Below, piece after piece: positions 5,363 through 7,383 of a stretch of DNA of 29,891 bases (positions are counted from its first letter, which is position 1; every line of letters begins with the position of its first letter). Below the pieces are notes generated by a model, which searched no databases, was not told the DNA's origin, and saw only the letters and a program-made list of their open reading frames with translations. The position numbers were made by a program, and so were the translations under genes. Origin of the DNA: an uncultured bacterium (GTDB lineage Bacteria; Muiribacteriota; Ozemobacteria; Ozemobacterales; Ozemobacteraceae); contig CAZQUE010000055.1 in NCBI GenBank assembly GCA_964596185.1, positions 1 to 29,891 of the forward strand, in the 5' to 3' direction.

Positions 5363-6364
5363 TTAGTCAATTTTTGTTTCGCGCAGCATTTTTGCCGCAT
5401 CTTCTGGTGGAGTTGGGTTGATATAAAAGCCCGAACCCCATTCGAAGCCGGCAATTTTGGTGAGTTTGGGAATTATTTCGATGTGCCAGTGGTAAAAATC
5501 TTTGTAAGAATCAGAACAGGGCGAAGTATGTAGGACAAAGTTAAAAGGCTGTCCAGGCAGCAAGGCCTGCATTTTTTTCAGCGCGGTTTGCAATGCCTTT
5601 CCCAGACTCGGAACCAGGCTGTTTTCAATAAGCTCGAATGAAGCCAGGTGATTTTTGGGGGTGATTTCCATTTCAAAAGGAAATCGCGCCGCGAATGGGC
5701 AAAAAACTATGAACTGGTCGTCTTCGTAGACAACCCTTGCGCCTTCCTTGGATTCCTGTTTGACTATGTCGCAAAAAAGGCAGCGATCATGGTAGTGGTA
5801 GTATTCGCGAGCGCCTTCGAGTTCTTCTTCTATACGTTTGGGAATAATCGGTGTCGCCACAATGTGAGAATGGGAGTGGGAAAAGTTTGAAACTCCCTTG
5901 CCACTGTTTTTTACAATCATGAAATGCTTGAAGCGCGGATTTTTTTTGATTTCAAGAAGTCGTTGTTTGTAGGCCCAGATTACTTCGCGCATCTGCTCGT
6001 CACTTGCATTCTGGAGACTCGTGTAGTGGTCAGGGGTTTCAACGACCACCTCATGAACACCAATCGAATTCATGGCATCGAACATGCCGATTCCCTCGCG
6101 ACCGGAATCGCCTTCAGGAGCCAGAATTGGTGAACGATCCGGGATAATTCGAACCCACCAGCCCTTACTGTTGGCACTTGTTCCAGCGGTTCGAAAGGCC
6201 AGTGTCTCATCGGGGGTTAGATTCTCATTTCCTTCACAAAATGGACAGGTTGCCGGGTCATCGATGGTTTCTTCAATCTTTTTGAAATCAGAAGGTCTTT
6301 TGCCGCGCTCTGGCGAAATGATCACCCATTGCTTCAAAACTGGATCTTTTCTTAGTTGTGGCAC
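5363..6364 (-). CDS. GalT-like HIT-family nucleotidyltransferase (galactose-1-P uridylyltransferase-like), paralogue A with variant HSHSH motif
   Basis: 333 aa. Zn-site CPFCEGNE; active-site region NFSHSHSHIVATPIIP; C-terminal EWGSGFYINP. GTG start with AGGAG SD 10 nt upstream. Lies 17 nt downstream of paralogue B on the same strand. Confidence 0.75.
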   Translation of the reverse strand: MPQLRKDPVLKQWVIISPERGKRPSDFKKIEETIDDPATCPFCEGNENLTPDETLAFRTAGTSANSKGWWVRIIPDRSPILAPEGDSGREGIGMFDAMNSIGVHEVVVETPDHYTSLQNASDEQMREVIWAYKQRLLEIKKNPRFKHFMIVKNSGKGVSNFSHSHSHIVATPIIPKRIEEELEGAREYYHYHDRCLFCDIVKQESKEGARVVYEDDQFIVFCPFAARFPFEMEITPKNHLASFELIENSLVPSLGKALQTALKKMQALLPGQPFNFVLHTSPCSDSYKDFYHWHIEIIPKLTKIAGFEWGSGFYINPTPPEDAAKMLRETKID

Positions 6365-6381
6365 TTTTTAAGCTCCTGGGT

Positions 6382-7383
6382 TCAGTCTGAACCGTTTTTG
6401 AGTAAGAATCTGGTGGCATTTTCCGGTGGCACCGGGTTGATATAGAAGCCGGAACCCCATTCAAACCCGGCAACTTTCGTCAGCCGTGGCATAATTTCGA
6501 TATGCCAGTGAAAGTAATCAGAACAAAGCTCACCACAGGGCGAAGTGTGAATAACATAATTAAATGGCGGGTTGCCCAGGGTTTTTACCAGGCGGCGCAG
6601 GGTGCCATGCATGATGTCGGCCAATCCTTCGGTTTCACCCGGATCTATATCCCCAAATGAGTCTTTGTGTTCTTTCGGCGCAATCCAGGTTTCAAAAGGA
6701 AAGCGCGAGGCGAATGGGGAAAATGCAACAAATTGTTCGTTTTCATGAATGATGCGGTTGCCTGAACTAAGTTCCTGACGGATAATGTCGCAAAAAACGC
6801 ATCTCTCTTTGTAGTAATAATATCTTTTCGCACCCTCGACCTCTTCCATGGCTCTTTTGGGAATGATGGGCGTTGCAATGAGCTGGGAATGAGGGTGGTC
6901 GAGACTTGCTCCCGCAGCTGCGCCATGATTTTTGAATATCAGGATGTAGCGAAAGCGTCGATCACGCTTTAAATCGCGGTAACGATCGGCATAGGTCCGA
7001 ATTATCCTTGCAATCTGTTCCCTGGAATAATTTTGAAACCCATCTTCATGTTCGGGAGATTCAATAATAACTTCGTGGGCGCCAATGCCATTCATCATGT
7101 CGTACACACCCAATCCAGTCCTGTCGAGATCTCCTTCAATCTGCAGTGCCGGAAACTTATTGGGTATAACCCTGACTTCCCAGCCTGGCTGGTTCGGCAA
7201 ACTGTCGGGGCTGCGATAGGACATGACCTCGTTGGGGGTCATGCTTTCGTTGCCGCTGCAAAAGGGGCATTTGTTGCTCTGACGCGGCGCAATATCGATT
7301 TTGAAGTCCTGGGGAGATTTGGCTTCTTCGTGAAGGATGATCACCCAGCGTTTGGTTACAGGATCTTTTCTCAGTTGTGGCAT
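6382..7383 (-). CDS. GalT-like HIT-family nucleotidyltransferase, paralogue B with canonical HPH motif
   Basis: 333 aa with the same MPQLRKDPV.K.WVII N-terminus as A. CPFCSGNE; LDHPHSQLIATPIIP (canonical class-I GalT H-P-H-x-Q). ATG start with GGGAAGGGA SD. Confidence 0.8.
   Translation of the reverse strand: MPQLRKDPVTKRWVIILHEEAKSPQDFKIDIAPRQSNKCPFCSGNESMTPNEVMSYRSPDSLPNQPGWEVRVIPNKFPALQIEGDLDRTGLGVYDMMNGIGAHEVIIESPEHEDGFQNYSREQIARIIRTYADRYRDLKRDRRFRYILIFKNHGAAAGASLDHPHSQLIATPIIPKRAMEEVEGAKRYYYYKERCVFCDIIRQELSSGNRIIHENEQFVAFSPFASRFPFETWIAPKEHKDSFGDIDPGETEGLADIMHGTLRRLVKTLGNPPFNYVIHTSPCGELCSDYFHWHIEIMPRLTKVAGFEWGSGFYINPVPPENATRFLLKNGSD

Follow-up and report, generated by a model that had tools for sequence, protein, structure and literature searches.

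The GalT (galactose-1-phosphate uridylyltransferase) branch of the HIT superfamily is defined by the motif HxHxQ, in which the second histidine is the nucleophile, and both the class I GalTs and the Arabidopsis ADP-glucose phosphorylase At5g18200 are homodimers with their active sites between the subunits (bioRxiv 10.64898/2026.09.13.751320). In the E. coli enzyme, Ser161 binds the alpha-phosphate and Gln168 is hydrogen-bonded to the phosphate of the intermediate (bioRxiv 10.64898/2026.09.13.751320), and UDP-glucose is contacted by Arg28, Arg31, Gly159, and Ser161 (PMC5081055). In human GalT, Gln188 contacts the phosphate and ribose of UMP, the hexose-phosphate, and Asn97 of its own chain, and the hexose-1-phosphate site is formed by the stretch from Lys334 to Gln346 of one chain together with Gln188 and Asn173 of the other (PMC5081055). 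Human Arg48, the counterpart of E. coli Arg28, sits on the chain opposite Gln188, a placement for which the same source cites a homology model derived from the E. coli structure (PMC5081055). Here we describe two adjacent genes of this family, designated A and B, on contig CAZQUE010000055.1 (29,891 nucleotides in full; hereafter the window) from an uncultured bacterium of the Ozemobacteraceae (assembly GCA_964596185.1). We give about an even chance to the reading that the two products may form a heterodimer with one canonical and one remodelled active site, and that it would work in nucleoside diphosphate glucose (NDP-glucose) and glycogen metabolism.

The two genes, taken from the open reading frame (ORF) listing, and the codons on which the argument turns are as follows.

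6382..7383, minus strand: gene B, 333 amino acids, ATG start, upstream member of the pair
5363..6364, minus strand: gene A, 333 amino acids, GTG start, downstream member of the pair
6883..6897, minus strand: codons for B residues 163–167, H-P-H-S-Q, read from the sequence
5864..5878, minus strand: codons for A residues 163–167, H-S-H-S-H (zinc-ligand His, nucleophile His, and a third His replacing Gln)
6137..6139, minus strand: codon for A Asp76, which replaces a family-invariant Asn (E. coli Asn77, human Asn97)
6293..6316, minus strand: codons for A residues 17–24, SPERGKRP, the intact arginine loop with the equivalents of E. coli Arg28 and Arg31
7312..7335, minus strand: codons for B residues 17–24, LHEEAKSP, the degenerate loop with both arginines gone

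The alignment of A with B contained 163 identities over 334 positions (49%; BLASTP E = 9e-129) and only two single-residue gaps. Both proteins begin with MPQLRKDPV and carry CPFC-x-GNE. The original prediction, which was made from the DNA letters and a list of their ORFs, had described two paralogues of 333 residues at these positions with a common N-terminal start, a CPFCxGNE zinc site, and the motifs HSHSH in A and HPHSQ in B. The ORFs and the BLASTP alignment confirmed the former points, and the motifs were read directly at residues 163–167.

Both copies scored above the cut-offs of the N- and C-terminal GalP_UDP_transf domains of Pfam (PF01087 and PF02744) and, with 110 and 117 bits, above that of TIGR00209 (102 bits), while their scores of 130–142 bits lay far below the cut-off of 448 for the E. 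coli-type equivalog NF008724/PRK11720. The closest solved structure for either copy was At5g18200 (PDB 1Z84; E = 2.4e-64 for A and 3.6e-71 for B), followed in the PDB sequence ranking by Pyrobaculum GalT and only then by E. coli and human GalT. An AlphaFold2 model of A (predicted local distance difference test score 93.8, predicted template modelling score 0.91) had At5g18200 as its best fold match, with a template modelling (TM) score of 0.84–0.92, and the TM scores against 1Z84, 1HXQ, and 5IN3 ranged from 0.82 to 0.92. B is 58–63% identical to relatives outside the Riflebacteria. The residues of the zinc site (C39/C42, H112, and H163 in B; C40/C43, H113, and H163 in A) are 100% conserved, and metal binding is predicted. 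Judged by sequence and modelled fold, A and B belong to the branch of class I GalT (HIT superfamily) that resembles ADP-glucose phosphorylase. Both copies are nearer to ADP-glucose phosphorylase than to true GalT, a point on which the label "GalT-like" of the original prediction is incomplete. No gal genes (galK, galE) were found in the window or beside the relatives examined. The filing of the pair as GalT, as is done in databases, is probably a misnomer, and the pair serves as a warning that annotations as "galactose-1-phosphate uridylyltransferase" in these lineages are probably wrong.

The divergence of the two copies is asymmetric. Conserved columns were defined as the 137 alignment columns with at least 90% conservation in the 130 nearest relatives. 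A has changed 22 of these, mostly to new residues that are fixed at 98–100%, and B has changed three. None of the changes in A falls in the arginine loop or in the C-terminal sugar-binding segment, and the latter, AGFEWGSGFYINP, is identical in A and B. The changes in A include the following.

R12Q, equivalent to E. coli Gln20
N75D (A Asp76), equivalent to E. coli Asn77 and human Asn97
A79I
Y146H (A H147)
F150V (A V151), equivalent to E. coli Phe151
deletion of one residue, G158, equivalent to E. coli Gly159
A159S
Q167H, equivalent to E. coli Gln168 and human Gln188
K192H
E193D

Column 75 is Asp in 100% of clade A versus Asn in 97–99% of B and the outgroup. HxH[SA]H is present in 54 of the 55 clade-A proteins and HxHSH in 43 of the 44 genomic loci, the sole exception being L044 (protein P0048) with HEHSQ. 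The nucleophile His165, H163, N153, and the zinc ligands are invariant (100%) in A, and the arginine loop reads SPERGKRP in nearly all orthologues, with R20 and R23 each at 98%; the position of Ser160, the residue for the alpha-phosphate, is relaxed (N 44%, S 42%). Because Gln188 and Asn97 are in contact in the human enzyme, the combination of Q167H and N75D indicates that A has swapped an interacting Gln–Asn pair for His–Asp. It follows that the changes in A, namely the His–Asp pair and the shortened Gly159 loop, would all lie on the cis side of its site. Fixation of the changed positions at 98–100% indicates a new constraint, and given the 22 versus 3 changed positions, neo-functionalisation of A is a fair reading of the alignment. 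With regard to the two motif substitutions singled out in the original prediction, the change from Gln to His is real and is coupled to the Asn75-to-Asp change and the loss of Gly158. The change from Pro to Ser carries no information and was set aside as noise, since the middle position of the motif varies across the family (P 47%, S 27%, and T 22% in the 130 nearest relatives) and At5g18200 itself has HSHSQ.

Copy B retains a canonical catalytic half (N75, G158, S160, and H163-P-H165-S-Q167). Its motif is HPHSQ in 43 of 44 loci, L033 being the exception with HSHSQ. The three conserved columns that it has lost are R20, R23, and T318. R20 and R23 correspond in the alignment to E. coli Arg28 and Arg31 and are Arg in 98–100% of the outgroup, while position 20 of B is Q, N, E, or K and position 23 is G, S, K, or T; this variability indicates relaxed constraint. 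Across the pairs of ~44 species, A has SPERGKRP and B has x-H-E-x-x-K-x-P with a single exception. The replacement of T318 by V was considered as the loss of a third trans element and was dropped, V being as common as T in the wider family. The description of B as the canonical copy is therefore right for its HPHSQ motif and wrong for the ER-x-KRP loop, from which both arginines have been lost. By the cited homology model and the fusion proteins described below in the case of Arg28, and by inference in the case of Arg31, B has therefore lost elements that act in trans on the site of its partner.

The same division of elements was observed within single polypeptides. Two clusters of proteins of ~600 residues (P0228 and P0378) are fusions of two family modules. 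In module 1, the ERAKRP loop is perfect and the C-terminal half complete, there is no CxxC, and G-G-P-Y-S-N stands in place of HxHxQ. Module 2 starts at the CPFC motif, without the first ~37 residues that include the arginine loop, and has a canonical catalytic half. Such a layout, which speaks for trans-complementation in this family, would be expected only if the arginine loop serves the site of the other module. Complementary loss of cis and trans active-site elements is thus found in the co-encoded paralogues A and B, with the same split in the fusions. In addition, a divergent metagenome-assembled genome (MAG) with the NCBI label Riflebacteria (L057) has an operon in which glgA lies between an upstream Arg-less (NPESLRAHP) canonical-HIT copy and a downstream A-type copy with SPERSRRP, D75, I79, and H167. 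The original prediction had suggested sub- or neo-functionalisation into different specificities. The asymmetric divergence of A agrees with this, but the complementary losses suggest joint rather than independent action of the two proteins.

We propose that A and B would assemble as a heterodimer. Site 1 would be fully canonical and consist of the catalytic half of B with the arginine loop and the C-terminal sugar-binding segment of A. Site 2 would be remodelled and poorer in arginines, with the His/Asp catalytic half of A facing the degenerate loop of B. Both sites are expected to act through a covalent nucleotidyl-His165 intermediate on an NDP-glucose-type substrate, and the remodelled site may differ in the nucleotide, leaving group, or acceptor that it handles. 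Judging from the gene context in relatives, the physiological role could be the supply or turnover of NDP-glucose for glycogen synthase.

In the databases, the nearest proteins carry the labels Candidatus Riflebacteria, Rifleibacterium, or Ozemobacter. Among 46 species-level loci of the candidate phylum Riflebacteria, B is followed by A on the same strand on every contig of sufficient length (~44 species), with spacers of ~15–75 nucleotides where both genes are complete. Four loci with the B–A pair (L002, L006, L020, and L021; 74–91% identity) are filed as MAGs of Methylomirabilis, Erysipelotrichia, or Avigastranaerophilus, which probably reflects binning or labelling errors. The ratio of nonsynonymous to synonymous substitution rates (dN/dS) between close orthologues was 0.004–0.07 for both genes, indicating strong purifying selection, and no frameshift in A or B was seen in ~44 genomes. 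The nucleotide identity between A and B is 56% overall and 38% at third codon positions. Taken together, the conservation of the pair across ~44 species, these identities, and the low dN/dS indicate that the pair is ancient and that both genes are under strong purifying selection. In neighbour-joining trees, clade A was monophyletic in 200 of 200 bootstraps and clade B in 196–200 of 200. The original prediction had proposed a phylogeny and a nucleotide comparison as checks and had named frameshift decay as a refutation. The trees place A and B in separate, ancient, individually conserved lineages, the identities point to an old divergence, and no decay was encountered.

The remodelled motif is not confined to these lineages. 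In a sample of ~355 proteins outside the two Riflebacteria clades, all with both motif histidines kept, Asp75 was present in 24 of the 27 His167 proteins versus none of the 328 Gln167 proteins (Fisher p 2.5e-34, ignoring relatedness), and Gly158 was kept in 324 of the 328 Gln167 proteins versus 6 of the 27 with His167. Proteins with the A-type signature carry Acidobacteriia, NC10, and Riflebacteria labels. Both arginines are kept in 19 of the 27, and the Arg-less state was found in only eight of the 328 canonical-HIT proteins. From this distribution of residues, HxHxH/Asp75 is a recurrent active-site type in several phyla and is not peculiar to this duplication. In a second paired lineage (L059), a glgA-like gene stands between an upstream canonical-HIT copy and a downstream A-type copy. 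An A-type profile scan of metagenomes yielded 80 loci (L063–L142) and returned only canonical members; no further A/B pairs were found in it, and none of the 80 canonical members had a second family copy beside it. At least nine cluster representatives lack the nucleophile histidine; position 165 holds V, C, I, R, S, or Y instead of His in P0238, P0241, P0255, P0257, P0269, P0281, P0294, P0319, and P0366, and such proteins are presumed pseudoenzymes. P0238 and P0319 were considered as tests of pairing and were uninformative, there being no family partner on their contigs. A universal stress protein gene follows P0238 in three contigs. A further protein, P0240 (871 residues), carries two seemingly active modules in tandem (HAHSQ and HPHSQ) behind a low-complexity, possibly eukaryotic N-terminus, and this fusion may be a covalent version of the dimer.

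Some of these observations, and several others, weigh against a heterodimer of A and B. The phylogeny gives no A+B sister grouping: the two clades were sisters in only 3–7 of 200 bootstraps, and monophyly of all A-type proteins was obtained in 0 of 200. The star-like backbone (internal branches 0.002–0.02) and the long stem of A limit what these trees say on both groupings. Shared derived residues of A and B amount to only three (Q3, K11, and C283), which would be a hint of common origin. The T318 change in B is uninformative, and A has itself changed R12 to Q near the arginine loop, though E. coli GalT also has Gln there. The trans placement of Arg28 goes back to a homology model cited in PMC5081055, and that of Arg31 we only infer. 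The pattern in L059 is less clear-cut: R20 is retained by the upstream copy, and the loop of the A-type copy is rich in K and has no Arg. Finally, the A-type proteins P0234, P0390, and P0439 stand alone in other lineages, and the Arg-less canonical-HIT proteins P0267, P0293, and P0310 have no visible partner on their short contigs, so that homodimers of each type may be viable.

The last point leads to the possibility that A and B are two independent homodimeric enzymes of different specificities that are co-transcribed for one pathway, in line with the sub- or neo-functionalisation of the original prediction. B2 would be an NDP-glucose phosphorylase or transferase that is canonical apart from its missing arginines, and A2 an HxHxH/Asp type with another preference for nucleotide, leaving group, or acceptor. 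The occurrence of both types elsewhere without a neighbouring partner fits this explanation, as do the recurrent and self-consistent A-type signature (with both arginines in 19 of 27), the retained nucleophile and zinc ligands, and the low dN/dS in both copies. It leaves unexplained why B has lost precisely the two arginines of 98–100% conservation and hardly anything more while the always adjacent A keeps them, why canonical relatives are single-copy (0 of 80 duplicated), and why the elements are divided in the same way in the fusion proteins. We regard it as the main alternative, though a somewhat improbable one. It is improbable to a clearly greater degree that A is a non-catalytic partner, that is, a regulatory or nucleotide-sensing subunit or a prozyme, which donates its arginine loop and sugar segment to B and whose HSHSH site binds a ligand without turnover. 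Dead paralogues do exist in the family (the nine or more cluster representatives and fusion module 1 lack the nucleophile His), and in A the Ser160 position is relaxed and the sugar/phosphate anchor Gly158 is deleted. However, H163, H165, N153, and the zinc ligands of A are 100% conserved, D76, H147, H167, H192, and D193 have become new invariants, in contrast to the fusion module that is truly dead and has decayed, and the same signature is present in stand-alone proteins of other phyla. With its nucleophile kept and new invariant residues gained, the remodelled site of A is probably a working site and not a dead one. A tandem duplication that is recent or redundant, and in which one copy is decaying into a pseudogene, would account for the tandem layout and equal length only. 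The amino acid identity of 49%, the third-position identity of 38%, the maintenance of the pair across ~44 species, the dN/dS values, and the lack of frameshifts exclude it for practical purposes. The proposed heterodimer therefore remains the most parsimonious reading and the one that we carry forward, at the even chance given above.

The suggested role in glycogen metabolism comes from gene neighbourhoods of the relatives. glgA directly adjoins the canonical family member in 18 of the 80 metagenome loci, and a GH57 enzyme does so in two. glgA also neighbours A-type genes in L057, L059, and L062, and the gene after an Arg-less copy is glgA in L051 and a GH57-like ORF in L050. The gene for the fusion protein P0228 (L052, 5001..6800) lies between tyrS and gap-pgk-tpi-secG, with a phosphoglucomutase gene upstream. 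Where carbohydrate-related neighbours of relatives are present, they are glgA or GH57. The family is thus linked by context to NDP-glucose and glycogen metabolism, and the glgA adjacency points to an uncharacterised role of HIT-type NDP-glucose phosphorylases in bacterial glycogen metabolism. A literature search found no biochemical evidence for bacterial family members, and GalT/HIT enzymes are unmentioned in the first 300,000 of the 445,374 characters of a 2024 review of prokaryotic alpha-glucan enzymes. The window itself has housekeeping genes only. The gene context in Riflebacteria was rejected as a functional clue: the genes downstream of the pair vary (pilin-like, ECF sigma, ABC transporter), and the upstream neighbourhood kept in 39 loci consists of a divergent orphan ORF of 199 residues and then the ffh-rimM-trmD-rplS block. 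As a broader and more doubtful extension, the Riflebacteria and some other uncultivated lineages might possess a GalT-family enzyme that is an obligate heterodimer and has two composite sites of different chemistry. One would be a canonical NDP-glucose phosphorylase site, and the other, a His/Asp site poorer in arginines, would differ in its nucleotide or acceptor chemistry. Such an enzyme might belong to an undescribed HIT route that supplies or recycles the donor of glycogen synthase, independent of or parallel to GlgC.

The signals around the two genes and the adjoining features are listed below.

6365..6381, minus strand: B–A spacer, 17 nucleotides, with the Shine-Dalgarno sequence AGGAG at 6377..6373, 8 nucleotides before the GTG of A
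7424..7453, minus strand: promoter-like TTGATC-18-TATAAT upstream of B, a consensus match only (10/12 matches)
5241..5314, minus strand: tRNA-Ala(GGC), with its own promoter-like site at 5358..5330
7692..8291, plus strand: ORF of 199 residues, divergently transcribed from the B–A pair, upstream of B in 39 of 46 loci

The order on the coding strand is B, A, and tRNA-Ala. A terminator scan found none on the coding strand of the B–A spacer, which indicates a two-gene operon. The tRNA was the sole match of an Rfam scan. It was rejected as a part of the B–A unit, having its own promoter-like site and following A in ~10 of the 27 loci scanned. Co-orientation, the gap of 17 nucleotides, and the neighbouring tRNA-Ala are as given in the original prediction, with the correction that B precedes A on the coding strand, and the adjacency of the tRNA is incidental. 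The ORF of 199 residues had no Pfam or PDB match. Its homologues are 52–90% identical across 39 of the 46 Riflebacteria loci, cysteines in its N-terminal part are arranged as C-x4-C...C, and the protein could regulate the pair.

Elsewhere in the window, the ORF at 1830..4367 (plus strand, 845 residues) matches Pfam MVP_shoulder (4.6e-29) and a Vault_3 repeat, with a weak SPFH match, and is by these domain matches a bacterial major-vault-protein-like gene. It stands with an ORF6N-domain gene (4551..5138, minus strand) and a LysM/GDSL-like gene (606..1766, minus strand), and the three lie between tRNA-Ala and the homologue of the ORF at 30..590. In most related loci, that homologue comes directly after the A gene or the tRNA, and among these loci the major-vault-protein-like gene is common only to L004 (86% identity). 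The ~4.6 kb beside tRNA-Ala looks like a variable insertion. At 8681..9077, a hyper-acidic ORF of 130 residues with D/E repeats on the minus strand overlaps an Arg/Leu-rich ORF of 122 residues on the plus strand; both are putative.

Compared with described systems, the pair is nearest to At5g18200. Shared between At5g18200 and one or both copies are the CxxC/His/His zinc site, a second CxxC, the HxHxQ-type motif (HSHSQ in At5g18200), the ER-x-KRP-type arginines (R41 and R44), and the sugar segment G-F-E-x-G-x-G-x-Y-I-N-P. At5g18200 is a single-gene homodimer with two identical sites between the subunits (PDB 1Z84, 1ZWJ, 2H39). Of its characteristic residues (HSHSQ, N94, G179, S181, R41, and R44), the Q, N, and G equivalents are missing from A, in which the motif Gln has become His, Asn94 corresponds to Asp, and the loop is shorter, and neither Arg equivalent is present in B. 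The identity is only ~37–40%, and phosphorolysis of ADP-glucose by the bacterial proteins is putative. The class I GalTs (E. coli 1HXP, 1HXQ, and 1GUP; human 5IN3) share the fold, the ping-pong chemistry through a nucleotidyl-His, and the dimer-shared site, at an identity to the pair of only ~21–23%. Their residues Gln168/188, Asn77/97, Gly159, Ser161, and Arg28/31 fall on positions that differ between A and B.

The resemblance to other HIT proteins is more limited. The H-S-H-S-H-I-V of A restores the third histidine of Hint, Fhit, and the Mycobacterium Ap4A phosphorylase Rv2613c (H-x-H-x-H-x-x), and the middle histidine is the nucleophile in all of them. However, these are single-domain proteins of ~110–200 residues, while A is of the GalT type with two half-barrels, and the resemblance is at the motif level only. 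The A model gave TM scores of 0.24–0.33 on the query against Hint/Fhit/Rv2613c-type folds (0.24–0.27 for Hint and Fhit). A is not a classical HIT protein of the Hint/Fhit kind: although its three histidines are present, the phi positions are occupied by Ser and the fold is of the double-domain GalT type. Both copies also have weak to moderate Pfam matches to DUF4921/DUF4931 (B. cereus BCE0241, PDB 4QVU), and some A-type proteins are named "DUF4931 domain-containing" by NCBI. The DUF4931 proteins are shorter (217–265 residues) and match the A model partially (TM 0.47 on the query). In the HxHxH/Asp75 type of several phyla, both the Gln that defines the GalT branch, here His, and its Asn partner have been swapped, which offers enzymologists a defined residue pair. 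The commonest mutation in galactosemia lies at one of the human equivalents, Gln188 and Asn97.

In concept, the pair resembles the prozyme systems, namely trypanosomatid AdoMetDC/prozyme, deoxyhypusine synthase, and the PRMT1 prozyme, in which an enzyme with its site at the interface has been duplicated and each paralogue keeps a different half. The likeness is at the concept level, with one intact composite site remaining. If the heterodimer of A and B is true, it would be a bacterial example of a duplicated interface-site enzyme split into one canonical site and one that is re-engineered rather than dead, with the natural fusion proteins as an internal control. The partners in the prozyme systems are catalytically dead and eukaryotic, whereas A, in a putative heterodimer with B, keeps the nucleophile and has gained new invariant residues.

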